Source: an uncultured bacterium (GTDB lineage Bacteria > Patescibacteriota > Minisyncoccia > Phycocordibacterales > GWA1-40-21). Taken from it: a DNA stretch of 64,000 nt. Under the pieces are notes generated by a model. That model made no database searches. It was not told where the DNA came from and worked only from the letters and a program-made list of their open reading frames with translations. The DNA is taken from the NCBI GenBank assembly GCA_963798465.1, contig CAWCTC010000001.1, positions 68,315-132,314 on the forward strand. The letters run 5' to 3'. Each line of letters opens with the position of its first letter. Within the stretch, counting starts at the first letter, position 1. Shown here piece after piece: positions 9,119-64,000 of this stretch. A program made the position numbers and the translations under genes.

Positions 9119-9260
9119 CTTAATATCGTTTTTTAAAAGCAAACTGAAAAAATATTTTTATGCAAGCTTCCACATTTTTCCATCTATAGAAGTATGAAAC
9201 TAAACATGATAAAATCTATGCTGTAAGCCCATGCAGTATGGAAACTCGGTAAGAAAAAGC

Positions 9261-11063: not shown

Positions 11064-11071
11064 AAAATAAA

Positions 11072-11695
11072 ATGATTAAAAAAAATAAAAAAGAATCAGG
11101 ATTCACTTTGATAGAAACTATGGTAGCCATATTAATTTTTACCATTTTGGCACTCGGCGTAAGCACTTTATTCACAAATATATTTATAAATTCAAAAGGG
11201 CGATTTGCAGCAATCAGCGATATAGATCAGGCTCAGATGGTGGCAACGAATTTTACAAATGAAATTCGAATCGCATCAACCGGAAATACCGGCGACTATC
11301 CGATCAACCAAGCCAGCGACACGCAAATAATTTTTTACTCAAACTACAAGCAAAGTCCGGGAATCGTGGCGCGCATACGATATTATTTGTCAGGAAAAAC
11401 ATTATACAAAGGAATTGTGATTCCTTCAGGAAGTCCGCTGTCTTACAATTTATCGCAAGAAAAAATCCAGGATGTTCAAAATGATGTTTCAAATAACGGC
11501 AAACCTATATTTTATTATTATGATGGCAACTATAACGGCAGTTCGACTCCCCTTGTCCAGCCGATCAATGTCAACCAGGTAAAATATGTAATAATGAATA
11601 TGAATATTTTGAAACAGCCGAACACATCCACGACGACATTCAATATTTCCGCCGGAGCTTCGATAAGAAATCTAAAAACCAATCTGGGAAATTAA
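11072..11695 (+). CDS. prepilin-type N-terminal cleavage/methylation domain protein (minor pilin/pseudopilin)
   Basis: MIKKNKKESG/FTLIETMVAILIFTILALG. The track ORF start at 10907 overlaps the preceding gene and was rejected. Confidence 0.8.
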   Translation: MIKKNKKESGFTLIETMVAILIFTILALGVSTLFTNIFINSKGRFAAISDIDQAQMVATNFTNEIRIASTGNTGDYPINQASDTQIIFYSNYKQSPGIVARIRYYLSGKTLYKGIVIPSGSPLSYNLSQEKIQDVQNDVSNNGKPIFYYYDGNYNGSSTPLVQPINVNQVKYVIMNMNILKQPNTSTTTFNISAGASIRNLKTNLGN

Positions 11696-11699
11696 ATTT

Positions 11700-42433: not shown

Positions 42434-42578
42434 CCTGTAGTGAAATTTCAAATTGTTTTTATATTGCTATATACACAATTTAAAACTTAAGTTTTATTTA
42501 CTAATAATATCTCGACATAAACCAACCCCGCATAAAAACAAAGCAATGATTTGAAATTCTACTACGGGATTCATATAG
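42432..42578 (-). repeat. ~145-bp palindromic element, copy 2, filling the tyrS-ruvC intergenic space
   Basis: Arms at 42432-42467 and 42543-42570. The shared right flank TCATATA includes the tyrS stop codon. The left arm ends in the ruvC ATG. Confidence 0.8.
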
Positions 42579-43765
42579 TAATTTTAACAAACCTCTTCTT
42601 ACCTATTTTAAGAGTAATTCCACTATGTATTTTGAAATTCACATCTGTAATTTTTTCTCCAGAAACCGCATTACTTATCGCATTTTCTGTCACAAGTCTT
42701 CTAAAATCAGTTTTTGAAGAAACAATTTTATTTTCTACTAATAAATCAATCAAAGATTTACCATTCTCAACTTTTATTTCCTCCATATTTTCAGGTAATC
42801 CACCTTTTTGAAAAGTATTAATAAAGTCATTTTCTGCTTTTTTCGCTTCTTTTTCGGAATGATAAAATTTAACAAGCTCATAAGCCAGTTTCATTTTTAT
42901 GTCTTTTGGATTAGTGCCAGATTCTAAATCTTTTTTATATTGTTCAATAATATTTGTATCAACTCTTGTAGTAAAAATAAAATACTTAATAATATAATCA
43001 TCTCTTAATGACAATATTTTTCCATACATATCACTTGGAGAATCAAAAAGATTTACAGTATTTCCCCAACTTGAACTCATTTTTCTACCATCCAAACCTT
43101 CAATAATAGGATTAGTAATAATATTTTGTGGTTCTTGTTTATAATGTCTTTGTAATTCTCTTCCTGCTAATATATTAAATTTTTGATCGCTTCCCCCAAT
43201 TTCAACGTCCGCTTTAATAGCAACGGAATCATATCCTTGCATAAGTGGATACAATAATTCTCGGAGTGATACTCTTTTCCCTGCATCAAGTCTTTTTTTA
43301 ATATTTTCTCTTGAAATAAAGTTACTCAATGAAAAGACATTCGCTTGTTCACAAATTTCATTATATCCAAGTTTTCCAAGCCATTTACTATTGTAGTGAA
43401 TTTCACATTTTTTTATATCGATAATTTTACTAGCTTGAGCTATATAACTTTTCATATTATTTTTTACCTGATCTTTTGAAAGCATTGGCCTTTCACTTTC
43501 TTTATCAGAAGTATCACCAATCACAGCTGTAAAATCACCGATAATCCAAACTATTTTATGTCCTAATTCTTGAAATTGACGTAATTTTAATAAGGGTATA
43601 GACCTGCCTAAATGTATATTTGGACTTGTTGGATCAATCCCTAGTTTTATGCGTAATTGTTTACCACTTTTAAGTTGTTGCTTCTAAATTATCTTTTTCA
43701 ATAATTTCTTCAACTCCACGAGTTAGAATTTCTTGAATTTTCTTTGGATCAGTATCAATTTTCAT
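42571..43765 (-). pseudogene. tyrS: tyrosine--tRNA ligase, one frameshift near codon 30
   Basis: MKIDTDPKKIQEILTRGVEEIIEKDNLEA/QQLKSGKQLRIKLGIDPTSPNIHLGRSIPLLKL... continues into ORF 42571-43524, which has KMSSSWGN (KMSKS-like) and a C-terminal S4-like region. The shift is near 43675. Confidence 0.85.
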
Positions 43766-47068: not shown

Positions 47069-48173
47069 TTATCTGTTCATCGGCATCACAAGATATGTGA
47101 ATGTCTTATCAGAGATTCCTTTTATGATAAGCGGTTTATTTATGCCGTTAAAAATCAAAGAAACGCTGTCAGAAGCGATGGAAGTGAAGACAATCGATGA
47201 TATATCTGTAATTAAAATTAACTTCTATATCCTCGCCTTCTATATTTGCATCGATCTTATTTATATTTTCTCCAATATTATTATTTTTTGTCTTTATTTT
47301 TATGGCTTTCTCTCCATTTTTTACGCTTATATTCATCTGATTGAAACTGTCGGAAAAAATATTTGAAATTTTCAATGAATTGATGAGATCCTGCTTCAAT
47401 AAAACAACTTTTGTTTTTTCTTCTTTTGGTAAAATCTGCTTATAATCAGGAAAAACTCCATCGATAACTCTTGAAACAAGATATGTTCCGTCAAAAACGA
47501 AAGAAATTTGATTTTTTGTCGCATTTATTTCTATTTCAGAATCAATATTATCAATAATTTTAAGAATATCCGATGCATTTTTGAAAGGAATTAATATATT
47601 ATTCAAATCCATATTTTTTCTTTGTTTTTATAGTTTTTTCGGCCAGTCTGAATGAATCTGTCGCTACAAATATTAAATTATCTTCATTTGAATATATATA
47701 AACACTCGCAAGCTCGGGTTTTACACTTGATAATGACGAACTATATATTACAGATTTTATTCCATTTACAAGATCTTTTGAATTTATTTTATATGTTTTT
47801 TCATTATCAATCATAGGAACAGTTGGAAAATCTTCCGAAGATAAGTGTTTTTATACTGGCTTCGCTGTTTTGTGTATGATATTTTTAAAGTATTTTCTAC
47901 TGTTTCTAAGATAATATTTTTATCATCACTTAGATTATTCAAAAAACTACTTATTATATTAGCTGGAACGGCAACTTTTCCATTTTCTTCAACTTTTACA
48001 GGAATTGATATTTCCAAACCCAAATCAAGATTTGTTGATCTTATAATTAAATTATTTCCTTTTGTTTCAAATAATAAACAAGACAAAACTGGAAGATTAA
48101 TATTTTTACCAACAATTTTTTCAGCTTTTGATACAGCGAGATGAAGTTTTTCTTTTACACATTCAATTTTCAT
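47069..48173 (-). pseudogene. dnaN: DNA polymerase III beta sliding clamp, three frameshifts
   Basis: ORFs 47811-48173, 47599-47814 and 47169-47612 plus tail ...SIASDSVSLIFNGINKPLIIKGISDKTFTYLVMPMNR ending at TAA 47069-47071. Junctions fall at A5/A6 runs (~47845, ~47610) and a TT run (~47172). SSEDFPTVP is restored after the first shift. Confidence 0.9.
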
Positions 48174-48395
48174 TTTTTTTTTAAATTTATCTATTAATTA
48201 TTATTACAGACCTTTATTTGTTTATAATTATTTTAACTTTATTTTATAGCCTTATTTTAATTTTATTTTTTTAAATAATGTTATTTGTATTGTGTTTAAT
48301 TATTTTATATTATTTTTTATCCCAAACTTATAAACATTTACTCAAACCTATTATACATAAACTTATCAATAACTTATCCACAACTATTTCAACAT
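48174..48395. other. candidate oriC segment (AT-rich unwinding region plus DnaA box) between dnaA and dnaN
   Basis: 48174-48327 is almost pure A/T. A perfect TTATCCACA lies at 48378-48386, beside the degenerate CTTATCAATAAC. AAGTGGATAAAG is also present upstream of dnaA near 49787-49798. Confidence 0.5.
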
Positions 48396-49719
48396 CGAAC
48401 GTATCTGACCTAATTTCTTGAACCAACTCAGGATCGGTTTTTAAATCATTTTTTACCTTTTCATATGAGTGAATTACTGTTGAATGGTCTCTATTTCCAA
48501 CTTTATCTCCAATAGATGGAAATGAAATATCAAAATCTTCTCTCAAAAGATACATAATCACCTGTCTTGGCTTAATTACTTCTTTTTTTCTACCTTTTTC
48601 AAAAATAGTATTCTCTTCTATGCCGTAAAATTCAGAAACAACACGAATAACATCTTTTACTGAAACATTTTTCTTTGGTTTAGAAGTGTTTTTAATCAAT
48701 TCTTTAATTTCATTTATATTGAGTTCTTTATTTTTAAGCTCTGTTTGGCATAAAATAAGGTTTAAAATACCTTCTAATTCTCTAATATTGCCTTCACAGC
48801 ACCGGCAAGGAATTCCACAATATCATTTGAAATATTTAGGTTCATCAGAGAAGCTTTTTTCCTAAAAATCTGAATTCGCGATTCAAAGTCAGGCTTTTGA
48901 ATTTCAACAATCATACCGGCATTAAATCGTGATTTGATGCGTTCTTCTATATCAGGAATGAAATTTGGATGTTTATCTGAAGAAAAAATGAGTTGTTTGC
49001 CGGTGTCGTGAAAACTGTTGAATAAGCTGAAAAATTCTTCTTGCGTTTTTGTTTTTGATGAAAAAAATTGAATATCATCAATAATCAACAAATCATATTT
49101 TTTATATTTATCTTTGAAAGTATTTATATTTCCACTATTCAGCGAATTTATATAATCATTTGCGAATTTTTCCGATGTCAGATAAAAAATTTTTTTATTC
49201 GGATCTGTTGCTTTGAAATAATTCCCCACAGCTTGTATCAGGTGAGTTTTTCCATGCCCTGTGCTTCCAAAAATAAATAAAGGATTATATATCGCGGTTC
49301 TTTTTAAGTATTGCCTGCGATGCAGCATGTGCGAGCTCATTGAAAGGTCCAATAACAAAAGTTTCAAAAGTATATTTAGGATTCAAATTGTCTTCTTTGT
49401 TTATATAAAAATTATTCAATGGAAGCTCGTTTGAATGGATTGTTGTTTCTTTCGCATTAGTTTTTATTTTCATCCTTTGAAACGACATACTCTACATTTC
49501 TTATATGTTCTCCGAAACTTCTTAAATTTTTCAATATATCCTTGTGATATTTATTCATCAGCCAATCTTTTACAAAAACATTCGGCACTCCCAAATAACA
49601 GTGCCGTCTTCTTGTTTGATAATAAAAGTATCTTTAAACCACATGCTGAAGTTGGCCTTTGAGATTCCCAGCTCTATTTGAGCCAGAACATTATTCCATA
49701 GAGTTTTGTTTTCGTTCAT
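48328..49719 (-). pseudogene. dnaA: chromosomal replication initiator DnaA, at least 4 frameshifts
   Basis: MNENKTLWNNVLAQIELGISKANFSMWFKDT.../LGVPNVFVKDWL.../[27 protein letters not shown].../[26 protein letters not shown].../GNIRELEGIL.../..PRQVIMYLLRE..GNRDHSTVIH. The true stop may be TAG near 48393 if a further shift exists. Confidence 0.9.
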
Positions 49720-49886
49720 TGAGATCAATTATAAGTCTCTGCAGTTATTAATAGAAATTATTTTTTGTTTACAAGTTGTGTATAAAAAGTGGATAAAGAA
49801 AAATCAAAAGAATTTTTTTGAAACAACAAATGATATTTTAAATCCGCAGGAAGCAGGCGTTAAGGAAAAAATTTGTATTTAAGCAC

Positions 49887-49915
49887 TTTACATTTTATGT
49901 TTTTTGATTTATACT
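49887..49915 (+). promoter_or_regulatory. sigma70-like promoter of rpmH (TTTACA-17-TATACT), ATG 7 nt after the -10 box
   Basis: TTTACA at 49887-49892, a 17-nt spacer, TATACT at 49910-49915, then ccccttcATG. No SD. Confidence 0.55.
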
Positions 49916-49922
49916 CCCCTTC

Positions 49923-50060
49923 ATGTCAGTCACATATCAACCAAAAAAGAAAAAAAGAGCAAAGACTCACGGTTTTCTTGCAAGAAACAAGAGAAAGTTC
50001 GGAAAAAGAGTGCTTAAAAGAAGAAGACAGCACGGAAGAAAGAAATTAACAACCGTCTAA
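49923..50060 (+). CDS. rpmH: 50S ribosomal protein L34
   Basis: 45 aa, own translation: [45 protein letters not shown]. Below the track cutoff. Confidence 0.95.
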
Positions 50061-52648: not shown

Positions 52649-52700
52649 ATATGAAATAACAAATACCTCGTGTGCTCTGCACCGAGGTAGTTTATTAATA

Positions 52701-52731
52701 AAAATGGCGGCCGCTTCGCGGCCGCCATTTT
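52701..52731. terminator. bidirectional terminator (NotI-stem family) between jag and the T4SS-like cluster
   Basis: AAAATGGCGGCCGC-TTC-GCGGCCGCCATTTT. Confidence 0.7.
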
Positions 52732-52735
52732 TATT

Positions 52736-53971
52736 TTATTGATTAATCTTCAGCAACCATAAACTTAGATCATTTTTATTCATAAAAGAAATATATTGAT
52801 CGTCGGGACTTATCATCGGATTAATGACATCTATCTGCGCGTTTTCATTTATTCCAACTTGGTATAGTAATTTTGTTTCACCTGTATTTGTATTTATTGA
52901 CCAGATATTGTCGCTGAATGAAACAAGACCTTGATACCAAGCGTCAGGATAATTACTTGCAGTAATTACATTTGGAATCGCGCAATAAAGCATTGTGTTG
53001 TCCTCTATTCCCCAAACACATTTGTCAGCCAGGGTATTTGCCTGTATGTTTTTATTTGTTTCATTTTTTACATCGTAAACATTGAATGAAAAAGAATTTC
53101 CATTACTTGTGGAATAAGCAACCAGGCTTGCATCGCTGTTTGTGATTGTAGACAAACCAAGCATACCTCCTATTATTCTGCTCATTGAGCCTGTTTGAGG
53201 ACTGAAGAAGAATAGATAACCTTTGTATTTATATGACGGTTTTGTTGTCATTGTTATAACGCTTTCCTTCGGCCATGAAATATTCCAATCGAGAACTGAA
53301 GAATTGAAAATTTGTTTTTCTGAAGAGCCTGTTGAAGACAAACTTACGCCGTATGTTTCGTTGTTATTAATCATTAATCCAAAAAGACTGTTTCCTGCAG
53401 GATCTGCAACTAGCTGATTCAAATTTGGAGTTATGAAAGATCCGGTTATGCTGCCCAAAACTCCGCTTGCAGTGCTTGTGCCAACAGTTATTTTGGCTAA
53501 ATAACTGTCTATAACATTTGTGCCAGTATCAAGATATCTAAAAGCTAAATTATTTCCACCATTCAGCCAGACTGCTTCCTGAACTTTCGGTATGGTTTCA
53601 TTCGTCAGTCTTGTCGGCGCGCCGGTTTGCGTGGACGGAATATATTCATAAACATTTCCATTTGATCTGTCGACAAATCTGATTACATCTTGATTGCTTT
53701 TATTTAAAAATAAATTTGAGCCGGATGTTGGATTTTTATATAATTCTATCAGCTGTGCCGTGGTTTTTATATTTTGCGTAATATTCTGGCCAGTTCCGCT
53801 TGTTGTCGATGCTGAATTTTGAGTCGCTGAAGGGGTTCCAAATGGATTTTGATTTGTCGGACCGGCCGAGGATTTTTTTGATTGATTTGTATAAAAATAA
53901 AAGAAAATCAAACCACCCGCAATAAGCAGGACAATTAAGGATATTATTATGATTGAATTTCTTTTGGACAT
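52736..53971 (-). CDS. membrane-anchored exported protein of unknown function (last gene of T4SS-like cluster)
   Basis: 411 aa with N-terminal TM (IIIISLIVLLIAGGLIFFYF), a low-complexity linker and a beta-rich body, possibly propeller-like. Confidence 0.5.
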   Translation of the reverse strand: MSKRNSIIIISLIVLLIAGGLIFFYFYTNQSKKSSAGPTNQNPFGTPSATQNSASTTSGTGQNITQNIKTTAQLIELYKNPTSGSNLFLNKSNQDVIRFVDRSNGNVYEYIPSTQTGAPTRLTNETIPKVQEAVWLNGGNNLAFRYLDTGTNVIDSYLAKITVGTSTASGVLGSITGSFITPNLNQLVADPAGNSLFGLMINNNETYGVSLSSTGSSEKQIFNSSVLDWNISWPKESVITMTTKPSYKYKGYLFFFSPQTGSMSRIIGGMLGLSTITNSDASLVAYSTSNGNSFSFNVYDVKNETNKNIQANTLADKCVWGIEDNTMLYCAIPNVITASNYPDAWYQGLVSFSDNIWSINTNTGETKLLYQVGINENAQIDVINPMISPDDQYISFMNKNDLSLWLLKINQ

Positions 53972-53980
53972 GTTAATAAT

Positions 53981-54670
53981 TTATATACATTTGGTCCCAG
54001 TTACGTCTGGCAACGCGGGTGGAGTACATGTAAGAGTTGGGTTTGGATTAACTGGTGCAGCATTTTTTACAGCATTTGCGCCAGCTCCCGCGGTCCCAGG
54101 TGTAAGAGTAGTTGTACCATTATACAAATCAGAAAATGAATAGTTGGGAACGTCTGATGATGTTGAATTATTTGAGGAAAGAAAAGTATTCGCGGTATTG
54201 CACCCCACACCTTTTCCAAGTCCTGCAAAATCTACGAGGCATGGATTTATTGTCCAAAGAATCGTGTATGAAACCAAAGCTAAACCTAATCCCCAAAGTG
54301 CATCCCCGATTCTTTTTTTGCCATTGTCCTTGCCTTCCCATGAATCGGTTGTCATATATTCTATTCCTCCCCAAACCATCATTATAAAAGCCAGAGTTAC
54401 AGCTATTGCTATTCCGAAATTAAAAACTTGCGTCAAAAAGTCGCTTAAGCTGGTAATTGAATTTGTAACTCCTACGCCAATGAAAGCAGCTGGTTCAAGC
54501 GGAACATATACTGAACATTTAGTACTGGAATCTGAGCCACTATTTCCATTATTAAAATACAATCCACTTGTTGAGTCGCAGGTTCCAAGTGCAAAAGTTG
54601 CCACCGGTGCAAAAGATGCGACTGTGATTATTGCCATTATTAATATGTATATTTTTAATAAATTTTTCAT
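53981..54670 (-). CDS. T4SS pilin-like protein (VirB2/TrbC-like topology)
   Basis: Signal peptide, then two hydrophobic helices around a charged loop: FNFGIAIAVTLAFIMMVWGGIEYMTTDSWEGKDNGKKRIGDALWGLGLALVSYTILWTI. A Cys-containing C-terminal extension follows. Confidence 0.55.
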   Translation of the reverse strand: MKNLLKIYILIMAIITVASFAPVATFALGTCDSTSGLYFNNGNSGSDSSTKCSVYVPLEPAAFIGVGVTNSITSLSDFLTQVFNFGIAIAVTLAFIMMVWGGIEYMTTDSWEGKDNGKKRIGDALWGLGLALVSYTILWTINPCLVDFAGLGKGVGCNTANTFLSSNNSTSSDVPNYSFSDLYNGTTTLTPGTAGAGANAVKNAAPVNPNPTLTCTPPALPDVTGTKCI

Positions 54671-54675
54671 GGTAT

Positions 54676-55740
54676 TTATTGTCCAAAATTTATATTGAAG
54701 CCGGCGGTGGCATATTGGAATATTCTGGAAATATTATTGACGGTCAGTGAAACCGATGCGCTTCCGACGAGATTTGTCTGAGTTTGCTTCATTAACAATT
54801 CATTCGGCTTGTCGCCGCTGCTTACGGCACTGCCGTTTACTGTCCACTGATATGACGAGTCGCTTCCGGAATCGCTGAGAAGATTGAAAAAGAACGGTTC
54901 TGCTATTATATTCACTTCTTCTTTTGTTCCTAAATAATAATTATTTGTTATTGCTTCATTATATAATATTCCGTAAATCGGGCTATCTTCATAAAAAAGT
55001 ATTGTGGGATCGGATGCTGTCACTACGGTTGAATTTGTGGCAAGTGTGTTTCCAGATGAATCCAATACTTCCACATCTACATCTATGTCTCTTATTGGCA
55101 CACTGCCGTTTACCGTGATTGAATCTTTGCCCATTCCGGAATCATCCGACATATATGTATCATTTACACTCCATCTGAAAATAAGATTTTTTGAACTGGC
55201 TTTGCTGCCGTTTATTAATACATCAGGAATTGCAATTATTTTTGCCGTTCCTTGGCTGGCGAAAATAGCGTTGCCTTTATAAAAAGGAGGAACATAAGAT
55301 GTCGGCTCTATTACTAAATCCACATCCGATGCTCTGACTTCCGTTGAAGATTGAAAAGTCGTGCCGTCTGATGTTTCAACAACAACTTTTATTTCAGTGG
55401 CTTGGTCGCCATTTTTGGCTTGCACGACTAAACTGTTTGCTCCGATGTCATTTTCTTTTATGGTTCCGTCAACATACCATGTTATTTTTGCCGAATCCAA
55501 ATCTACAGAGTAACTCGATACTGTTAAAGTCACATTATCTCCTTCCTGCGGATTTGGCGTGGATGCGTTTATTGTTATAGCACTAGTTTGAGCTGATTGT
55601 GCTGAAACTTTATTGCAGATTATAGTTTGAGCGCAGAAAAATATTATGACAAGTAAAGATGCTCCAACCAATCGTTTTGTGTTGAGAGATGAAAAAAAAA
55701 TATGCGCTGAGCTTATTATTTTTTTAAAAATACTTGGCAT
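54676..55740 (-). CDS. secreted beta-rich protein of unknown function (T4SS-like cluster)
   Basis: 354 aa with a signal/TM and a Ser/Thr/Asn-rich, Ig-like-looking body. Confidence 0.45.
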   Translation of the reverse strand: MPSIFKKIISSAHIFFSSLNTKRLVGASLLVIIFFCAQTIICNKVSAQSAQTSAITINASTPNPQEGDNVTLTVSSYSVDLDSAKITWYVDGTIKENDIGANSLVVQAKNGDQATEIKVVVETSDGTTFQSSTEVRASDVDLVIEPTSYVPPFYKGNAIFASQGTAKIIAIPDVLINGSKASSKNLIFRWSVNDTYMSDDSGMGKDSITVNGSVPIRDIDVDVEVLDSSGNTLATNSTVVTASDPTILFYEDSPIYGILYNEAITNNYYLGTKEEVNIIAEPFFFNLLSDSGSDSSYQWTVNGSAVSSGDKPNELLMKQTQTNLVGSASVSLTVNNISRIFQYATAGFNINFGQ

Positions 55741-55778
55741 TTCAACTAAAATTATAACACATATTTGTTAAATATATA

Positions 55779-57596
55779 CTATATTCCTTGGGCTATTTTG
55801 AGTTCCTCCTTTGCTCTTTTGATATTCAGAAGCTGTGATGGATCTGAAGTGATAATTTGGTCCTCGGTATATGAAGCGATTATTTTAATGGCAACATGTT
55901 TCAAACCTACGAAGAACATTCCTTCCCCGACGTTTGATTCGAGCAGAAGATATTTTTCTTCATCTGTCAGATTGAAAACTTTTTGTAAGTTGTCCACGAC
56001 TGTCGGCGATTGCTTCAAAAGAATTAAGATTGAGGAGTTTGTGACAATCGGCAAACCATAAGGGGATTTCAAAAAGTCTTCGACATCCTGGGTAATCGTG
56101 GCAAGTCCAAGGAAATATTTTCTTCCTCTTTTTGCCATTCCAAAAAGGAAAGAAGCCGCATCGTCTGATTTCATCATGACCCAAGCTTCATCTACGACAA
56201 GCAATCTTTTCTTTTTGTTTCTTCTGACTGCGTTCCAGATATAATGAGTGATGATATACATTGCGACAGTTTTTAATTCATCTTCCATGTCTCTGATCGA
56301 GAAAACCACGAATTTGTAATTTATATTCAAGTTTGTCGGCTTATTCAAAAAGCCAGACCAAGTTCCTCGGGTGTATTTTGAAAGTCTTTGAACAATTGAC
56401 TCGGCACCTTTCATTCCTGAAAGAACGAGTTCAAAATCTGAAAGAAGCGGAGGCTCAACATTTGAAAAGTCTGAGTCGGGTGTGATGTCTTTTAATGCGT
56501 ATGTTTCGGCGATTGCTCTGTCGACTATTGCGTCTTCTTCTGGAGTCAATCCTCCGAGCATTATTCTAAAAAGTCCAACAAGATTTATAATGTTGCTTCT
56601 TAGTACATCGGCAGGAGCTTCATCTTCGGCAGGCATTGGCAGATCAAAAGGATTTATATGACTTGTTGAGTTCAGTGAAATATTAAATGATTTTCCTCCT
56701 GTGGCTTCCGCAAGAGCCTCATATTCTTTTTCAGGATCAATGACAATAACATCAACATCAAACATAAGGCTTCTCAAAATTTCGAGCTTTGTGCAATATG
56801 ATTTTCCGGAACCTGATTTTGCAAAAGTCACAGAGCTGTAGTTTTCAAGAGAAAATCTGTCAAAAATTACCAAGCTTGCATTGTGTCTGTTTATTCCGTA
56901 AAGGATTCCTTTATCTGATGTAAGATCGAAGGAAACAAATGGAAAAATACTTGAGAGCGGAGAAGAATTTAATTTTGAATGGATATCAAGCAAGTCTGTA
57001 GCTATTGGCAATATGCTCTTGAAGCCTTGTTCTTGCTGGAATAGAGCTGGCTTTACATAAATCAGCTTTGATTCAAGTATAGATTTTATTTCAGCTTCAA
57101 CTTTATCCAATTCCTCATCGGAATCGCCATATATCGTGATATAAAGTCCTACATCAAAAAGTTTTTCCTGAGCCTGCTGAAGATTGTCTCTCAAAGATTC
57201 CAAATCTTGATATGCGGTATCGAGCACAGGATCTCTGACAAGTCCTTTTTTTTCTCTGGCATTTATCTGACTCTGCACTTCGGCCACTTTTTTCTGGAAT
57301 TGTCTCAAAACTTTTGCCGTATCTATAGGCTGGATGAATATTGAAATATTGAAAATTTTATCAAGGTTTATCATCGGCGAAAACCAGCTTTCCGACAGAA
57401 AACGAGGATATGAAATGACATAAAAAGTTCTGACGATTTTTTCTCCGAGATTAAGTTCCTTCGGTGAGATTTTTAAAGCTGAAGGTGCGATGATATCTTG
57501 CAATTCCAAAACACCCGCTTCGTATATTTCCTGTGGTAGGAATGAAGTCAGTTGTTCGTCTTTCTTTTTTGGTTTTAAAAAATCAAGTGGTCCCAT
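55779..57596 (-). CDS. VirB4/TrbE-family type IV secretion ATPase
   Basis: 605 aa. Walker A is FAKSGSGKSY and Walker B is KKRLLVVDEAWVMM. The N-terminal region is typical of Gram-positive-type VirB4 (RTFYVISYPRFL). Confidence 0.85.
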   Translation of the reverse strand: MGPLDFLKPKKKDEQLTSFLPQEIYEAGVLELQDIIAPSALKISPKELNLGEKIVRTFYVISYPRFLSESWFSPMINLDKIFNISIFIQPIDTAKVLRQFQKKVAEVQSQINAREKKGLVRDPVLDTAYQDLESLRDNLQQAQEKLFDVGLYITIYGDSDEELDKVEAEIKSILESKLIYVKPALFQQEQGFKSILPIATDLLDIHSKLNSSPLSSIFPFVSFDLTSDKGILYGINRHNASLVIFDRFSLENYSSVTFAKSGSGKSYCTKLEILRSLMFDVDVIVIDPEKEYEALAEATGGKSFNISLNSTSHINPFDLPMPAEDEAPADVLRSNIINLVGLFRIMLGGLTPEEDAIVDRAIAETYALKDITPDSDFSNVEPPLLSDFELVLSGMKGAESIVQRLSKYTRGTWSGFLNKPTNLNINYKFVVFSIRDMEDELKTVAMYIITHYIWNAVRRNKKKRLLVVDEAWVMMKSDDAASFLFGMAKRGRKYFLGLATITQDVEDFLKSPYGLPIVTNSSILILLKQSPTVVDNLQKVFNLTDEEKYLLLESNVGEGMFFVGLKHVAIKIIASYTEDQIITSDPSQLLNIKRAKEELKIAQGI

Positions 57597-57603
57597 ATAT
57601 TTT

Positions 57604-58260
57604 TTATTTATTTGGCATTATCGGCTTTTCCAGATCTCCAGGATTGAATATTTTGTAGAATAATTCGACAATTTCTTCCGTTCCAAGCTGGATCGTTCTG
57701 ATTCCGCATCTGGATAATCCTTGAGAAACTGTTCCTATTCTTTCTTCAAGCTGTGTTCTGTATTCTTCAAAATGATCATTTTTTGTTTCAGAGGATTTTG
57801 TTTGCGGTTTGCCCATTATCTGATTAAATGGATTAGATGATGAACTTATTGTCGCGGGAGAATAAGGAATTACTACGAAAAATGATTTTGTCATTATACT
57901 TGTCTGATCCACAAAATTTTTTATGAATGCAATATATTCCCTTATCTGTATTTTCATAAGATCTCCCAATTCATTTTTATATCTTTCTTCGAGCGTCGCT
58001 ATATATGGCCTAATGTCCAACTGTCTGGACTGTATTGAAATTTGGATGGAAAAATCCAATCCATTCAAGAAAGTTTGAAATTGCAATATTACAGCTTGTT
58101 GTTCGTCTGCAGATTTTAAAGCGAAGTTTATGGATGAAGCCAAGACGACAGCTCTCATGGAGCCATCTTTCAACATCACGATACCGTCGCGAATTTCTTT
58201 TATTGGAACAAAATCTTGTGTTGCTTTTGAAACTGCCATTTGTATTTGCTTATTATACAC
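57604..58260 (-). CDS. cluster protein resembling the VirB4 N-terminal region (no ATPase motifs)
   Basis: 218 aa; QDFVPIKEIRDGIVMLKDGSMRAVVLASSINFALKSADEQ.. parallels the N-terminus of the adjacent ATPase. Confidence 0.4.
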   Translation of the reverse strand: MYNKQIQMAVSKATQDFVPIKEIRDGIVMLKDGSMRAVVLASSINFALKSADEQQAVILQFQTFLNGLDFSIQISIQSRQLDIRPYIATLEERYKNELGDLMKIQIREYIAFIKNFVDQTSIMTKSFFVVIPYSPATISSSSNPFNQIMGKPQTKSSETKNDHFEEYRTQLEERIGTVSQGLSRCGIRTIQLGTEEIVELFYKIFNPGDLEKPIMPNK

Positions 58261-58300
58261 AAAAAACCGGAAACATTATATGGATATTGTTTTTTGCGCC

Positions 58301-58741
58301 TCATTGTCCGTCATTTTCTTCTCTCGTGACCGGATTTAAACTTTCTTTTACATCCAAGCTCCAAGTCAAATCTTTGAGTTTACTTTCAGACATTTTTGGA
58401 ACTGAGATTAGTGATTTTGCCTGTTCTACCTGGTCAGAAAATTGCGAAATCGGTTTTTTTTCTTCTTTTCTCCATAAATAAAGTTTGTCTCCCAAAAAAT
58501 AATAAAAAGCCGATTGGACCATATCGATAAAAGGCTTGTTATTTACTTTATAAAAAGCTAAAGCCAGAGTAAAACCGGCGATGGGAATTATCATGATTAC
58601 TGACAGTATTTTATACGGTATATATATAAACAACGCCACGCAAGCTCCTGTACCTCCAGCCAAATATAAAAACTGTTTCAAGGTCAGTGGACCAAAGATT
58701 TTATCTTCTATTTCTATGAATTGTGGAACTTGAAACTGCAT
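58301..58741 (-). CDS. PrgI/VirB3-like small membrane protein
   Basis: 146 aa; MQFQVPQFIEIEDKIFGPLTLKQFLYLAGG followed by two TM helices. Confidence 0.6.
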   Translation of the reverse strand: MQFQVPQFIEIEDKIFGPLTLKQFLYLAGGTGACVALFIYIPYKILSVIMIIPIAGFTLALAFYKVNNKPFIDMVQSAFYYFLGDKLYLWRKEEKKPISQFSDQVEQAKSLISVPKMSESKLKDLTWSLDVKESLNPVTREENDGQ

Positions 58742-58765
58742 AAAATTTTCTTTTTGAAATTAAAA

Positions 58766-59452
58766 TTACATGAATGTTTCTCTGTAAGGATCGCTTGAAG
58801 AAGCTGGCTTTTCAGGTAGTTTTGTTTTTTCCTCGGAAATTACTGTTTCTTTCGGTATTGCGACAGGTTCTGTCATTTTTGTTTCTACAATATTTTGAAT
58901 CGGCGGAATATTTTGATGCAGAGGTTCCGTTTTTTGTGCGGATATAAAACTTGTCGGAAACGATGCTACTGGAGCGACTTCCGGAAGATTATTCGTTTGT
59001 ATCTCTATTCCCTCTTTTGCCATATCGGCATGGATTTCCTGAGTCGGAATATTTAATTTTATCGGAGTAGCAAGAGGTTCATTTTCTTTATTTTCATCAG
59101 TGATTTTTTCAGAAGCTTCTGCCTCGGCTGTCTCGCTATTTATCTGTTTCAAAAAATCTCTGACACTTTTAAAAATCGTTTCATTGACATCATGTGAGAC
59201 GACGGAAGCTTGGATGCTGGATAGGCCGACATTCTTCATAAGACTCTGCGTATAATTTTCCAGAGGTTCAAGACCGAAAAGAACCAGCATCGTTGCAGTT
59301 TCTAATCCTGCAGCTTGATCAATCAATAATTTATTATTTTTTACAATCTCCTGAAGTTTTGCAGACAAATCAGCATCAGTAATAGCTCTTTGAACTTCCG
59401 GAGGAAGCGCGCTGAACTGTTTTTGCAAATCTTGTGTTGTTGTGTCGTCCAT
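58766..59452 (-). CDS. hypothetical protein (T4SS-like cluster)
   Basis: 228 aa, no TM. I recognise no family. Confidence 0.4.
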   Translation of the reverse strand: MDDTTTQDLQKQFSALPPEVQRAITDADLSAKLQEIVKNNKLLIDQAAGLETATMLVLFGLEPLENYTQSLMKNVGLSSIQASVVSHDVNETIFKSVRDFLKQINSETAEAEASEKITDENKENEPLATPIKLNIPTQEIHADMAKEGIEIQTNNLPEVAPVASFPTSFISAQKTEPLHQNIPPIQNIVETKMTEPVAIPKETVISEEKTKLPEKPASSSDPYRETFM

Positions 59453-59471
59453 ATTTTTATTTTTTTTAAAT

Positions 59472-61556
59472 TTATATTATTGGCTTATCATTTGGATTTT
59501 GTTTATCCGTAGCTTTTGGCCCACCTGCATCAGGTTTTTCATTTTCGGTCTTTTCTTCGCTACTAATATTATAACCGCCTTCTTTCATTTGTTTTTGCAA
59601 AGCTAAGAAAGCCTTTGAAATATCCTGACGGTTTCCTGCCCATAATTCATTAGTAAGTTTTTGTTTACGTTTGCCAAATAATGTGATGCTCGGGGTTTTT
59701 TCCAAATTGCTTATGTATTTATTTCTGGCTTCACTCGATTTAATTATTTTTTCATCCAATTCTTCATTTTCTTTATTAAACACATCAAAACTCTTTCCCG
59801 ATCTTTCGGCAATTCTTTTGGCTTCGTCTTCAATGAAGACTTTAAATTTCTTATCTGCAACATCAAAATCAGCCTTTGCTTTGTCCAACATTCCTTTTAT
59901 TTGTGGATCATTGGGACTTTTTGCCGATTCTTCTTTTAGTTTGTTAAATTTTTCTTCAGAATTGTCTCGTACCTTTTTCTCGTCTGATGAACCTACTTCT
60001 TTAGATTTTATAGCTTGACTTCTAAAAGAATCTTTTGTTGCTTCTATTTCCTTTTGTCTGTCTTGATATTTTTTAGGACCTATGGCTTCCGCTGCTTTCC
60101 TTATTTTATCTTCATTTTCTTTCTGATTTTTTTCATTGTTTTTCAACAATTTATCTATATCTACGAATCCGCCAGTTGCACCTTTAACTCCCCCATAAAG
60201 ATTACTTTTTACAACATTTGAGGCCATTCCAGCTACGCCAGTATGTTCGCCGGTAAATACCTTTGTAACATTTTTTCCAAAACTTGTAGGAAAATTCTTA
60301 AGCGCATTATTTCCGCGAGCAAGGAGTTGTCCAACTTTTCCTTTTCCGGCTGTTTTTGCTGCTAATTCTGCCTCTGCTGCGTCAGCTCCCAAAAGCCCTT
60401 CTGCCCCAGCAGCCAGTCCGCCCGTTGCTAACATCGCACCTGCAACTGCAACTGTTTTTCCAACATTCACTGCAATTTCTCCGACTTTTCCGCTTAATTT
60501 TTGAGTCAATTTCATTCCTTGCAGTAGCAATACTATTACTAATATGTAAAAGAAATATGATCCCATATTCGCAGCTACTGGTGAAGCATCGCTTTGAGTA
60601 ATATTTGATGTGAGATTGGCTAAAGTATTATTTTGCAGCAATTTTACGACCACTAGCAGAAAAAATAGGAATACCGGGGCCACAAGTATTTGATTCGTAA
60701 GCGCTTTCCACCAATCTTTGGAATGCTGGCTTATCCATGGTATGGAGCCGAAAACAAAACCTATAGGAGAAGCTATCGCCAAGAACATCAGCATCACAGT
60801 TCTTCCTATGAAGAGCCAACATCCATAAAAAAATACCCACATAAGTAAGATAATCACCACGCATTGCAATACCATTGCTGTGATTTGAGCTTGCTGCGAC
60901 GCCAGCGAAACAGTTAAAAGCATATTAGTAAAACTATGTATGTTTAATGAGGTGCTCAGTATATTCGATATATTGCCATTGCTTATAATTTGTATTTGAC
61001 TGTAAAGTGCAGCTGCAACAAAATTGCCGGCATCTATAAGAATTTTTGTAAAAAACATACTGAAGTTTATCATTATCACGTCTATTATCACGTTTGTAAG
61101 AGTTGTTGCTGACTTAACTCCCCAGCTTCCGATTATTTTTGTTATGGCGATGTAAAGAAGGATAAAAATAAAGACAATATTTATTGTATCTCTGAGTGTT
61201 TGCCAGAGTATATTTATACTACCCGCACTATCAAACAAAAGTTTAATGTTGAAGATTGAAAAATTGATTGCCATATCAAATAAAGATCCGAAAAAAGAAA
61301 GAAACCAGCCTAGAACTGCCACTATCATTCTAAGAATGATACCAGTTTGTACAAAATTATCTTGGTTCGCAACTCCTCCTGCCACGTCCCATACACCACT
61401 AAGTGTATAGTTTGGTCCGCTGTTAGTAGTAGCTGTTGTTGCAGTTGTGGCTCCCGTGCTAGCAGCGGCGTGAACATTATGAAAAACAAAAAAGCCACCC
61501 AACACTAAGAAGAGTAAAATTAATGCAACAGATTTTTTTGTAAAAAACCTTTTCAT
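59472..61556 (-). CDS. VirB6/TrbL-like polytopic membrane protein with long charged C-terminal tail
   Basis: 694 aa: signal peptide, at least 6 TM helices over ~350 aa, a Gly/Ala-rich segment, then a Lys/Glu-rich ~250 aa tail. Confidence 0.6.
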   Translation of the reverse strand: MKRFFTKKSVALILLFLVLGGFFVFHNVHAAASTGATTATTATTNSGPNYTLSGVWDVAGGVANQDNFVQTGIILRMIVAVLGWFLSFFGSLFDMAINFSIFNIKLLFDSAGSINILWQTLRDTINIVFIFILLYIAITKIIGSWGVKSATTLTNVIIDVIMINFSMFFTKILIDAGNFVAAALYSQIQIISNGNISNILSTSLNIHSFTNMLLTVSLASQQAQITAMVLQCVVIILLMWVFFYGCWLFIGRTVMLMFLAIASPIGFVFGSIPWISQHSKDWWKALTNQILVAPVFLFFLLVVVKLLQNNTLANLTSNITQSDASPVAANMGSYFFYILVIVLLLQGMKLTQKLSGKVGEIAVNVGKTVAVAGAMLATGGLAAGAEGLLGADAAEAELAAKTAGKGKVGQLLARGNNALKNFPTSFGKNVTKVFTGEHTGVAGMASNVVKSNLYGGVKGATGGFVDIDKLLKNNEKNQKENEDKIRKAAEAIGPKKYQDRQKEIEATKDSFRSQAIKSKEVGSSDEKKVRDNSEEKFNKLKEESAKSPNDPQIKGMLDKAKADFDVADKKFKVFIEDEAKRIAERSGKSFDVFNKENEELDEKIIKSSEARNKYISNLEKTPSITLFGKRKQKLTNELWAGNRQDISKAFLALQKQMKEGGYNISSEEKTENEKPDAGGPKATDKQNPNDKPII

Positions 61557-61631
61557 CTATATATGACAGAATTATAACACTCTGTTCAAAAAAACACCAA
61601 ATATATTTCTGATAAAAATACCAAATCTTTT

Positions 61632-63485
61632 TTATTGCGAAGAAGTAACGGTCACTGTTGTTCCGCTTGATAGAGATGATGTTGAAATATTTAGTGCAGG
61701 ATCAATATTTATCAAGCATGGCGCGATGGAATAATTATTTTTGACGAGCATAAGCCATTGTTTGACATATGCTACGGATGTTGTGGCGGGAGAATCGAAA
61801 TTTCCCGACGCCGAATTTATCGGAGTCATTGCGTCGGCTATTTGACCGACGTTTGTTGCCGATTCGAGTGCGCTTTCCGCAGTGTTTATAAGGTCCAGGT
61901 TTTTATTTGATGCATCTATCAAAGTTTGTATTTTATATAAATTCCATTGTATCGGTGCATTTCCTGAGTAGCCTATTCCGTCTATATTTGTTATGACATT
62001 TGATTGTATTTGATTTGCTCGGAGGAATGTTGTTGAACTGCTGTAGCCAGTGTTGCAAGTTCTTGCTGTAACGAATTCGGCTCTGCCTGTCGTCAATACA
62101 TTTTGTGCAATGCCTAAATCATTTTGGTATTCGGTTTCAGAATCTATCAAATTATTTAATCTGACAGCACTGTTGTATTTTTCTGTGTATAGAGGATCAC
62201 TGGTATCAATACCGGGCACAACTGAAATAGATGTAGATGTTGTTGCTTGTTGCGATTCAAAGCCAGGACCGAGTAGAGAACCGAGGTCTACATTTCCGGT
62301 GTTAGCTTGATTTGATTGATTGGCATATTGTTCCTCTGCTAGCTTTTCTGCGTTGGCTAATGTAGAAGCATAATTTTGATCAGCTTGTGAATTGTTATTA
62401 TTTAGTATACCGCCTGTAATTGCGCTTTCAGCATCATTAACAAGAGCACTGAGCAATGACCCGAGAATAGTATCTACACCATTTCCCAAAGCTCCTTGTA
62501 GTTCAGCAATATTTCCAGCTGAATTTGCTTGGAAGCCAAGCATATTTGTAATGATTGCTCCTGGTGTTGCTACTGAACAATGTTGCACTGTTCTGACACC
62601 TCCGATATCTGTTGGGGTAGCGGGTGGTTGAGTGCCTTTTATATATGTGGGTGATTGAGTACCAACAGTAGCTCCAGACATATCTTGATATGTGTCATAA
62701 CAATTACTGAAAGTCAAAGCTCCTTGCCCCCAATTCAATTCTTGTGTTTTTGCATTTTGGTCGCTGGTAACTTGCGCGTCAATGCTTGCCTTGGCTATCA
62801 AATAAGATCCAATAGGATCATCCTGCGGATTTTGAGTTGTTTGAAGCCAGTTGGTCCATACATTTTGAGTATTGACACTGACATTAACGCTGGCGGAATT
62901 TACTGCATTATTTACATTATTCAATATTCCTGGAAGTGTGCATGTTATCTGCTGAGCGAATGTCGGATAGCTTAGGCCCAAAGCGATTTTTACTTGAGCC
63001 TGAAATGGCGCGCAGAGAAAATTCAAATCTGGATTATTTAAAATCATATTTCCTATAGTTTGATTTGCCGTGTCGGAAAGTAATTTTGCAGGATCTGCTA
63101 TGAACATCGGTTGTCCCTGAAACCCCCCATTTATCCAACTTACTGTGGCTTGCGTAAGATTCTGAACAAGAGTTAGTGCCAACTTATTTGCCAGTAATGA
63201 AGCAGCGTCCCCAAGACTAAAATTTTTAAATATGTCCCACGTCGAATTTAAATGTGCTGTCGCTGGATTTACAAATCCTGCAATGGAAGTAAGGCTGGCC
63301 GCTTGAGCGGGGACGGTTGTTGTCTGATTAAGAACCCACTGTTTTCCACCAAGCGTCCAAAAAGCATCTACAACTGGATCAGTCTGTGCGTTTACTTTAC
63401 TTGGAATAATTACATAAGATATATTTATGAATATAACAAATATTATTAGGAATAAAAATATTTTTTTGTATTTTTTTAGATTCAT
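61632..63485 (-). CDS. large secreted protein of unknown function (T4SS-like cluster)
   Basis: I chose Met at 63485 (MNLKKYKKIFLFLIIFVIFINISYVIIPSKVNAQ signal). The track start at 63572 would overlap the upstream gene. Confidence 0.5.
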   Translation of the reverse strand: MNLKKYKKIFLFLIIFVIFINISYVIIPSKVNAQTDPVVDAFWTLGGKQWVLNQTTTVPAQAASLTSIAGFVNPATAHLNSTWDIFKNFSLGDAASLLANKLALTLVQNLTQATVSWINGGFQGQPMFIADPAKLLSDTANQTIGNMILNNPDLNFLCAPFQAQVKIALGLSYPTFAQQITCTLPGILNNVNNAVNSASVNVSVNTQNVWTNWLQTTQNPQDDPIGSYLIAKASIDAQVTSDQNAKTQELNWGQGALTFSNCYDTYQDMSGATVGTQSPTYIKGTQPPATPTDIGGVRTVQHCSVATPGAIITNMLGFQANSAGNIAELQGALGNGVDTILGSLLSALVNDAESAITGGILNNNNSQADQNYASTLANAEKLAEEQYANQSNQANTGNVDLGSLLGPGFESQQATTSTSISVVPGIDTSDPLYTEKYNSAVRLNNLIDSETEYQNDLGIAQNVLTTGRAEFVTARTCNTGYSSSTTFLRANQIQSNVITNIDGIGYSGNAPIQWNLYKIQTLIDASNKNLDLINTAESALESATNVGQIADAMTPINSASGNFDSPATTSVAYVKQWLMLVKNNYSIAPCLINIDPALNISTSSLSSGTTVTVTSSQ

Positions 63486-63534
63486 TTTTCTATTTTTATT
63501 TACTAAATGCTTTTCTATAAAAGTTTTTTGAAAA

Positions 63535-64000
63535 TTATCTCTTAATTTTAAGAACAGTATCAAGTGTGTCAAGCACCATCACAAGTTCACTTATTGTGGA
63601 ATTATACACTGATAAATCTGAAAATACACTAGCGGTATCTGTGCCGTATGAATTTACCATATCGTTATCTATTTGTATTAATTTTTCTAAATCATTTATC
63701 AAAGCCAAATGGAACATGACTCCAGCTGAATCTGTCGCGGCCGGAATGGGAACTTTTATTAAATTATTTATTATAGCCTGATAATCGGATGTAATTGTTG
63801 ACATTTCCTTTTTAGCTTCAGAAATACTTATGCCATTACCAGTTGAACTTGAGATATTTTCGATTATTTTTAAATCCTGTCCCATTATTCCCGCAAATTT
63901 TTCTGTTTCATTGTAATAATCTGTTCTGTATGAAGCCAGTTCGCTGGCAAGAGTACTGGTACTAACATCGATTGATATTATATTTAAGTCGGATTCTTGT
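63535..64000 (-). CDS. hypothetical protein, 5' end beyond window
   Basis: The frame of ORF 63535-63885 stays open to position 64000 in my own translation (...QESDLNIISIDVSTSTLASELASYRTDYYNETEKFAGIMGQDLK...). Confidence 0.45.
   Translation of the reverse strand, partial: QESDLNIISIDVSTSTLASELASYRTDYYNETEKFAGIMGQDLKIIENISSSTGNGISISEAKKEMSTITSDYQAIINNLIKVPIPAATDSAGVMFHLALINDLEKLIQIDNDMVNSYGTDTASVFSDLSVYNSTISELVMVLDTLDTVLKIKR

Follow-up and report, generated by a model that had tools for sequence, protein, structure and literature searches.

Introduction

What does a type IV secretion system (T4SS) do when it stands beside dnaA and has neither a relaxase nor a coupling protein near it? This question is raised by a cluster of ten genes at positions 52736-64000 of a 64,000-nt stretch of DNA, called here the window, from an uncultured bacterium of the Patescibacteriota (assembly GCA_963798465.1, contig CAWCTC010000001.1, positions 68,315 to 132,314). 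All ten open reading frames (ORFs) lie on the minus strand, to which every cluster coordinate below refers, and they are separated by gaps of 5-75 nt. The first-pass annotation, a reading of the letters of the window, had described such a tightly packed, co-directional set, and its coordinates hold. Its count of ten also stands, except that the tenth ORF is incomplete and runs off the window (the ortholog in a close relative has 337 amino acids). Genes are numbered g1 to g10, starting at the downstream end of the cluster.

The cluster is an instance of the published Patescibacteria-clade T4SS and is already known, because two studies (Quiñonero-Coronel et al. 2025, PMC12102498; Wang et al. 2023, PMC10633639) describe the same components, the same absence of a relaxase and, in Paceibacteria, the same proximity to dnaA. 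The comparisons show that its cytoplasmic-membrane core descends from MPF-FATA conjugation machinery of the CD1110 type and consists of a split VirB4, PrgI/VirB3 and a putative extended VirB6. They also show an accessory set of lineage-specific proteins, of which four are exported or bitopic (a TSP3-repeat protein, a member of the g9 family, a protein with three immunoglobulin-like (Ig-like) repeats and a propeller) and one is cytoplasmic (ending in the motif DPYRE). The whole is probably a relaxase-free T4SS or pilus, derived from monoderm conjugation systems, that links an epibiont to its host and most likely does not conjugate.

Patescibacteria represent a large share of bacterial diversity, and the T4SS is the leading candidate for the machine with which they take what they need from a host; in the one genetically tractable species it is essential. 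The window holds no new kind of system but offers a clean Paceibacteria-type example, with defined gene boundaries and a documented split of VirB4. What is added here, namely fold assignments for accessory proteins, the collinearity of the split VirB4 and a ranking of conservation, is incremental and could help structural work.

The split VirB4 motor

The motor of the cluster is g4 (55779-57596, 605 amino acids), a VirB4 ATPase without its N-terminal domain. It matches the NCBIfam model conju_CD1110 over profile positions 174-733 of 752 (E 1.2e-113; 380.9 bits against a cutoff of 325), exceeds the gathering scores of the Pfam families P-loop_TraG, AAA_10 and DUF87, and has its best solved relative in the ATPase domain of Thermoanaerobacter VirB4 (PDB 4ag5, E 8.9e-38). 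A weak match to the NCBIfam family CedB was also recorded (E 1.3e-9). The Walker A (AKSGSGKS) and Walker B (LLVVDEAW) motifs quoted for a VirB4/TrbE-type ATPase in the first-pass annotation are both present in the translation, and GSGKS and DEAW are invariant in the VirB4 alignment A1.

The gene upstream, g5 (57604-58260), encodes a TrsD-family protein of 218 amino acids if translation starts at GTG 58260, or of 211 if it starts at ATG 58239. In VirB4 models it matches N-terminal regions only (CD1110 positions 2-143 and Mbov_0397 positions 100-233), its TrsD match (TrsD/TraD family, E 3.9e-7) lies under the 200-bit cutoff of NCBIfam, and its orthologs carry the TraC-like family PF26593. When compared with a 783-amino-acid VirB4 of a Clostridium perfringens plasmid, residues 3-201 of g5 correspond to residues 19-192 (E 6e-10), while residues 30-564 of g4 correspond to residues 210-754 of that protein (E 3e-90; 34% identity over 552 residues). 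Since g5 and g4 are in this way collinear with the full-length plasmid protein, g5 can be assigned from its sequence as the detached N-terminal domain of a split VirB4. The earlier reading of a 218-amino-acid protein mimicking the VirB4 N-terminus was right about the correspondence; the protein is this domain itself, separated, rather than a mimic, and is probably 211 residues long, as the gene calls of relatives (210-212 amino acids) favour ATG 58239.

The same arrangement is found in other genomes. Almost all of the best 120 VirB4 protein clusters are 599-617 amino acids long (about 605), and a separate TraC-like/TrsD ORF of 210-212 amino acids stands upstream of virB4 in loci L001, L003, L085 and L086. 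That the split is a frameshift or assembly artefact, as might be feared in an assembly rich in indels, was rejected, the relatives having the same two ORFs.

Some variation was seen in this part of the cluster. L085 is a short-read contig from the same strain that is 99.8% identical to the window; its 16 mismatches and a lone 1-nt gap are all confined to a segment of 1.55 kb (56690-58241), which covers g5 and the first third of g4, and the remaining 7.7 kb or so are identical. These differences could mark a recombination tract or strain microdiversity. One of them exchanges the Walker A serine for alanine (AKSGSGKS in the window, AKAGSGKS in L085). In two other loci an additional gene occurs: an ORF of 78 amino acids between trsD and virB4 (L003:9756-9992), and a gene of the 23S_rRNA_IVP family (a four-helix bundle) of 123 amino acids between prgI and trsD (L001:8809-9180).

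Membrane core and pilin

Two genes upstream of the ATPase lies g6 (58301-58741, 146 amino acids), which is assigned by its sequence to the PrgI/VirB3 family. It matches Pfam PrgI (E 1.2e-8; 35.8 bits against a gathering score of 27) and weakly TcpE, has a two-transmembrane hairpin at residues 24-67, and is 44-79% identical across 76 loci. The N-terminal motif MQFQVPQFIEIEDKIFGPLTLKQ, cited when a PrgI/VirB3-like protein with two transmembrane segments was first proposed, was recovered in the translation.

The largest protein of the cluster, g8 (59472-61556, 694 amino acids), is a VirB6/TrbL-like polytopic protein of the "extended VirB6" kind. Its hydropathy profile has about seven hydrophobic segments, followed by a hydrophilic tail of about 340 residues (approximately 352-694) that is Gly/Ala-rich at first and then Lys/Glu-rich. 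The charged, Lys/Glu-rich part measures about 230 residues, so that the charged tail of about 250 residues in the first description has to be corrected. The VirB6/TrbL assignment itself has transitive support from orthologs: TrbL PF04610 is matched by 8 of 46 syntenic proteins (best E 1.9e-7), although the window protein gave no Pfam, NCBIfam or PDB profile match. Residues W118, N164-F165-S166, D175 and R252 are invariant.

The product of g2 (53981-54670, 229 amino acids) is a putative VirB2-type pilin. The window protein reaches 25.1 bits against the Pfam model PF18895 (T4SS_pilin, E 1.8e-5; gathering score 26.6) and matches the NCBIfam Mbov_0395 pilin-like model at E 2e-4. Among its 46 orthologs, 43 match PF18895 (best E 1.9e-11) and 2 match TrbC/VirB2, which agrees with the VirB2/TrbC-like pilin proposed earlier. 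A signal peptide precedes two hydrophobic helices (78-106 and 128-146) and a C-terminal extension of about 85 residues. Ortholog lengths range from 106 to 433 amino acids, with the extension varying from almost none to about 300 residues (L005-L084, alignment A9); one ortholog contains a match to the peptidoglycan hydrolase domain CHAP.

A fixed chromosomal slot without mobile-element genes

A conjugation-type core in a chromosome may indicate an ordinary conjugative element, either an integrative and conjugative element or an integrated plasmid, with its relaxase, type IV coupling protein (T4CP) and integrase located just outside the window. The homology of the VirB4, PrgI and VirB6 core to Firmicutes conjugation modules would be explained in this way, and the window does end inside the cluster. 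The DNA past position 64000 is revealed by loci L086 and L087 (GCA_003142075.1), because they share 94% DNA identity with the window over the cluster. The 10 kb in question complete g10 and further contain the gene of a peptidoglycan-binding (PG-binding) protein, ksgA, uvrD/pcrA and genes for a LysM-M23 peptidase, a ComM-like ATPase and a DksA-type zinc finger. A relaxase, a T4CP and an integrase are all absent from them. Within the window, the 19 ORFs of at least 250 amino acids outside the cluster include neither a relaxase nor a coupling protein, and no integrase was seen among the ORFs checked. The first-pass annotation, which had seen no relaxase, VirD4 or integrase in the window, is thus confirmed both inside the window and over the following 10 kb of the relative. 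It had also pointed to a relaxase, T4CP and integrase just past the window as the mark of a conjugative element; the relative's flank contains none of them, and the profile assignments survived.

Gene order points in the same direction. One genome per GTDB species was scanned, and 543 genomes had a VirB4 relative. The best 80 of these 543 are 77-93% identical to g4 and nearly all labelled Patescibacteria, Paceibacterota, Parcubacteria, Taylorbacteria or Campbellbacteria; VirB4 is 77-94% identical over more than 120 protein clusters. The lineage is Paceibacteria/Parcubacteria-like, not Saccharibacteria. The first reading had pointed to T4SS-like gene sets of the Candidate Phyla Radiation and Saccharibacteria; it underestimated the extent of the literature on this system (PMC12102498, PMC10633639).

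The 80 species-representative loci share the order g9-g8-g7-g6-g5-g4-g3-g2-g1-(jag)-yidC as far as each contig extends, which answers the suggestion to compare synteny across related genomes. The upstream flank contains ksgA in 49 loci and uvrD in 34, and dnaA and dnaN lie within 10 kb of the cluster in 46. In the window, g1 is followed by convergent jag, yidC, rnpA and rpmH (49925-50059) and then by divergent dnaA and dnaN, with 3-4 kb between g1 and both rpmH and dnaA; the abutment of the cluster on this region, noted at first reading, is seen in the window and across relatives. In the species-level loci examined, the cluster occupies a fixed chromosomal slot between ksgA and yidC-rnpA-rpmH-dnaA, a constancy that argues against a conjugative element. 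The G+C content of the cluster (0.35-0.38) is the same as in the rest of the window, without a compositional break. The nearest plasmid VirB4s, from Firmicutes and Actinobacteria plasmids, are at most 37% identical, and a relaxase is found near only 15 of about 2,470 patescibacterial virB4 genes (PMC12102498). A conjugative element is hence highly improbable.

Conservation was compared among those 46 loci whose contigs extend to dnaA and dnaN. Median identity to L001 is 80% for VirB4, a value biased upward because the loci were chosen by VirB4 similarity, though the gap is still large, as compared with 62% for TrsD, 59% for DnaA, 54% for PrgI, 52% for DnaN and 44% for YidC; for the propeller g1 and the Ig protein g3 it falls to 32% and 31%. 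Across species, VirB4 is 77-94% identical while DnaA is 55-91% identical. The pattern is that of a hyper-conserved cytoplasmic motor with fast-evolving surface parts. Purifying selection on the VirB4 motor is strong, and the ATPase evolves more slowly than DnaA, which is a further point against a conjugative element.

The missing relaxase, T4CP, VirB1 and VirB8 might raise the suspicion that an ancient conjugative element is decaying here and has lost its function. This is scarcely credible. Although the assembly has frameshifts in dnaA, dnaN and ruvB, the 11-kb cluster shows no indel breaks and each of its ten ORFs is intact. The conservation of VirB4 relative to DnaA and the invariant Walker motifs also argue against decay, as does the finding that homologous genes are essential in Southlakia (PMC10633639).

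Accessory proteins

Seven of the ten cluster proteins have a membrane or exported topology. No match to a VirB1-type hydrolase or to VirB8 (NTF2 fold) was obtained among the ten, which for VirB8 repeats the earlier result; the bitopic proteins have Ig-like and propeller folds in place of VirB8-like ones. Searches of PDB profiles with g1, g3, g7, g8 and g9 gave nothing significant.

The AlphaFold2 model of g1 (52736-53971, 411 amino acids), built on a 54-sequence alignment, has a pLDDT of 86.3 and a pTM of 0.79. It consists of a transmembrane helix (3-29), a disordered linker (31-70) and a 28-strand, seven-bladed beta-propeller (74-408). Foldseek matched the model in the PDB to TolB (4pwz, 6pnv), oligogalacturonate lyase (3pe7) and WD40 propellers, with E values around 1e-9, TM-scores of 0.4-0.5 and sequence identity of about 10%. 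The model thus predicts a membrane-anchored seven-bladed beta-propeller whose resemblance to TolB and WD40 proteins is at fold level only. It was found in 60 loci, at 24-61% identity.

In g3 (54676-55740, 354 amino acids), a bitopic membrane protein, a transmembrane segment (22-47) is followed by three repeats of about 100 residues. A conserved tryptophan recurs every 100 residues or so: W190 and W299 are invariant, and W88 is present in at least 90% of sequences. Ig_3, PKD_3 and BiPBP_C are matched weakly by the window protein and, each of them, by 5-7 of 46 orthologs; the PDB profile search gave a weak match to Hoc. We read these repeats as three tandem Ig-like beta-sandwich domains, presumably located outside the membrane.

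The only cytoplasmic member of the accessory set, g7 (58766-59452, 228 amino acids), lies between VirB6 and PrgI in about 62 loci and has no transmembrane segment. A conserved helical N-terminal domain of about 105 residues is joined by a variable Pro/Glu-rich linker to a C-terminal DPYRE, in which D221, P222, Y223 and E225 are invariant (alignments A6 and A10). It matched no family and no PDB entry, and its architecture resembles that of a cytoplasmic adaptor carrying a docking peptide.

The exported protein g9 (61632-63485, 617 amino acids from ATG) belongs to a large unnamed family, with 4273 representative 50%-identity clusters at E<=1e-3, of which over 3,000 remain at E<=1e-10. Its start is most likely ATG 63485, which is backed by a 100%-identical database protein of 617 residues; TTG 63572 is less likely. 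An N-terminal transmembrane or signal segment is followed by a conserved domain and a helical C-terminal part. W117, C158, C182 and TPG307-309 are invariant, and in alignment A7 cysteines C158, C182, C262 and C303 are conserved. Eight long orthologs contain an inserted discoidin (F5/8 type C) domain, and some contain Ig-like inserts. Such inserts fit a surface-exposed, ligand-binding protein, and g9 is a candidate surface or tip adhesin. Homology to DUF4141, a domain of a protein encoded beside traJ in Bacteroides conjugative transposons, was also considered and rejected: 7 of 46 orthologs matched it, and in those inspected the match covers only residues 19-66 or so, a signal-proximal stretch, below the gathering score.

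Finally, g10 begins, at its 3' end, at 63535 and continues beyond 64000. With no in-frame stop upstream within the window, the ORF is cut by the window end and only its 3' part is seen. Its full-length ortholog in the 94%-identical relative (L086:8939-9952, 337 amino acids) matches TSP3_bac at E 5.7e-10. The orthologs are exported bitopic proteins with an N-terminal transmembrane helix, two calcium-binding TSP3 repeats and a helical C-terminal domain, and g10 stands co-directionally upstream of g9 in 33 loci. The next gene upstream in close relatives encodes a PG_binding_1 domain without a catalytic domain.

Possible function

Experimental knowledge of such systems comes from the saccharibacterium Southlakia epibionticum, in which T4SS genes are essential for epibiotic growth and no recognisable coupling or relaxase proteins are present (PMC10633639). 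The essential genes include the pilin array (PMC10633639). A 2025 review that summarises this work regards these systems as the first T4SSs shown to be essential, potentially forming a pilus in a monoderm bacterium, and counts the essential pilin array as part of the locus (PMC12857230).

If the Paceibacteria system works as a host-linking T4SS or pilus, a VirB4/TrsD hexamer would dock on PrgI and VirB6 and would then pull the pilin out of the membrane, so that it could be polymerised into a pilus or tube of the VirB2 type that crosses the thin wall of a monoderm cell. As wall-spanning and tip or adhesion parts, the exported members of the accessory set (Ig, propeller, g9 and TSP3) would replace VirB8-10 and VirB5. 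The pilus or tube would bridge epibiont and host cell and act as a conduit for macromolecules, and the type IV pili that the window also encodes would supply attachment. VirB4, but not VirD4, is required for pilus formation in Agrobacterium. Conjugative DNA export is unlikely because neither a T4CP nor a relaxase is present in the neighbourhood; uptake of host material (nucleic acid) or T4CP-independent delivery would be likelier. A contact or uptake conduit is favoured, and T4CP-independent export is the main alternative.

A narrower proposal is that of a strict DNA or RNA import machine, comparable to Helicobacter pylori ComB or archaeal Ced, which would feed a cell unable to make nucleotides. 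It is consistent with the T4CP and relaxase not being found and with the weak CedB match of the ATPase, and import of DNA or other macromolecules has been proposed for the Patescibacteria T4SS (PMC12102498). In Southlakia, comEC is dispensable, its deletion leaving viability unaffected, while the T4SS is essential (PMC10633639, PMC12857230). A 2026 preprint on a cultivated member describes tubular structures, maybe T4SS pili, at the parasite-host interface, together with acquisition of host RNA (bioRxiv 10.64898/2026.06.21.733656). However, family profile searches recognised no nucleic-acid-binding or nuclease component in the cluster, and ComB and Ced work without VirB2 pilins. Strict import overlaps with the host-linking conduit favoured here and differs from it only in asserting substrate and direction; as a claim of its own, it is possible but remains on the doubtful side.

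A related and rather more doubtful idea assigns a task to the five proteins without T4SS homology (TSP3, g9, DPYRE, triple-Ig and propeller). Together they may form a Paceibacteria-specific envelope, tip and adaptor module that would convert the monoderm conjugation core into a coupling-protein-independent pilus conduit for import of host nucleic acid. If so, the T4SS would be the principal feeding organ of the cell, which would explain an ATPase more conserved than DnaA.

The opposite direction of transport is assumed when the cluster is seen as an exporter of protein effectors or toxins with which the host would be manipulated or lysed, a system that needs no T4CP, as is the case for Bordetella Ptl and Brucella VirB. 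T4CP-less effector systems are known (PMC12857230), and Wang et al. suggested that the Southlakia T4SS "may instead export proteins" (PMC10633639). The substrates of Ptl and of the Brucella system, however, use Sec and the periplasm, and a monoderm has no periplasm; moreover, no candidate effector gene was found in or beside the cluster. A conserved ATPase with fast-evolving surface parts fits either model. We judge effector export to be unlikely.

Several points weigh against the host-linking conduit that we prefer, in addition to the bias of the VirB4 identity values given above. Its function is extrapolated from Saccharibacteria and from gene content. For the five accessory proteins, topology and fold are the only basis of the proposed roles. 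For g9, the AlphaFold2 model (9 sequences, pLDDT 46.5) is too poor to use, and Foldseek found nothing with it at E<0.28; hence no fold is claimed. Support for g8 as VirB6/TrbL is transitive, passing through its orthologs, and the pilin score of the window's own g2 protein is 1.5 bits below the Pfam threshold. To our knowledge, no pilin shown to polymerise resembles one whose C-terminal extension measures 85 to about 300 residues. Finally, the 733-kb genome could carry the gene of a T4CP or relaxase at another site, and VirD4/T4CP homologues are indeed distant from virB4 in many Patescibacteria (PMC12102498).

Other features of the window

One nucleotide past the stop codon of g1 begins a hairpin (52697-52735) with a perfect 18-bp stem, AATAAAAATGGCGGCCGC-ttc-GCGGCCGCCATTTTTATT, which has A/T runs on both sides and separates g1 from convergent jag. 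Its form suggests that it is likely a bidirectional terminator between the cluster and jag. Within the palindrome lie two NotI sites (GCGGCCGC), runs of A and of T adjoin it, and the G+C content of the genome is 36%. About 170 nt around the palindrome cannot be aligned with the 94%-identical relative. A sigma-70-like promoter match, TTGACA-16-TAAAAT (11 of 12 positions), is located on the minus strand at 63545-63572, upstream of g9 and within the 3' end of g10. It is a consensus match only, and the total of such matches across the cluster equals the expectation from shuffled sequence.

The label "origin" for the neighbouring region rests on the dnaA/rpmH gene order only, because DnaA-box matches in the window are at chance level. 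The dnaA-rpmH intergenic region (49730-49925) has only two imperfect matches (49777-49796), and the lowest G+C of the window (0.28) occurs at 48-50 kb. Rfam and tRNA scans of the window were empty.

Several essential genes outside the cluster are broken or incomplete. In the dnaN and dnaA region (47072-49713), dnaA has two frame changes and dnaN three when compared with intact orthologs; these are single-base indels, some of them outside homopolymers. The ruvB gene (34115-34961) is in at least four pieces, the tail of a T2SSE ATPase (33286-33580) is out of frame, and Pfam profiles are only partially covered by polA (26669-27742), metG (6362-7717) and tyrS (42571-43524). The breaks look like assembly indel errors rather than real pseudogenes.

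Besides housekeeping genes, the window outside the cluster encodes a type IV pilus set: three N-methyl/PilX-type pilins (9231-13100), PilC (13500-14708), a PilB-type ATPase (15009-16397) and a second, T2SSE/PilT-like ATPase (32191-33261). It is likely a functional partner of the T4SS in host attachment. Three very large ORFs are possible surface adhesins. One, of 1717 amino acids (36296-41449), has NHL/SGL beta-propeller repeats and a Big_2 domain, and two adjacent proteins of about 905 amino acids (17222-19939 and 20091-22820) have almost no Pfam match apart from one InlB B-repeat.

Comparison with known systems

For g1 alone, a parallel exists in seven-bladed propellers of the TolB/WD40 type, which share its fold. 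TolB has an N-terminal alpha/beta domain where g1 has a membrane anchor, and the Tol-Pal context of TolB is absent around g1.

Secretion systems that function without a relaxase, and some of them without a T4CP, include Bordetella Ptl, Brucella VirB, H. pylori ComB and Sulfolobales Ced (PMC12857230), of which Ced and ComB import DNA (PMC12102498). They belong to diderms or archaea and have different envelope parts, and none of them is known to be needed for growth or to have a fixed place at the replication origin. The cluster is homologous to them in its VirB4 ATPase only, including the weak CedB match.

Monoderm MPF-FATA systems are nearer. In the CD1110-type system of the C. perfringens plasmid pSXP-169_2 (NZ_CP143494.1), PrgI is encoded immediately upstream of VirB4, and the N-terminal domain of VirB4 is homologous to g5. 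There, VirB4 is one protein of 783 amino acids, whereas here it is split in two. The plasmid module further includes MobC, a relaxase, a VirD4-like T4CP, an SLT transglycosylase of 850 amino acids, a topoisomerase and a sortase, none of which is present here. Other MPF-FATA systems named for comparison are pCF10 Prg/Pcf and pGO1 Trs; the pGO1 subclass also has a separate TrsD protein (PMC12102498). The plasmid MPF-FATA systems are without a VirB2 pilin, unlike this cluster.

The locus of Southlakia (SEML1_0006-0019) has an array of six pilins and adjacent peptidase and lysozyme genes, while the cluster described here encodes one pilin, extended at its C-terminus by a long and variable stretch, and contains no hydrolase. 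The propeller, triple-Ig, DPYRE, g9-family and TSP3 proteins are not named in PMC12102498 or PMC10633639. The nearest known system is the Patescibacteria-clade T4SS itself, whose VirB4 proteins form a monophyletic clade related to MPF-FATA (PMC12102498). It is chromosomal, with no relaxase or T4CP nearby, and the genes adjoining its virB4 (TrsD, PrgI/VirB3, VirB6 and VirB2-like pilins) are the same set as here; in Paceibacteria it is likewise located by dnaA, dnaN, rnpA, rpmH and ksgA (PMC12102498), the position that this cluster occupies.

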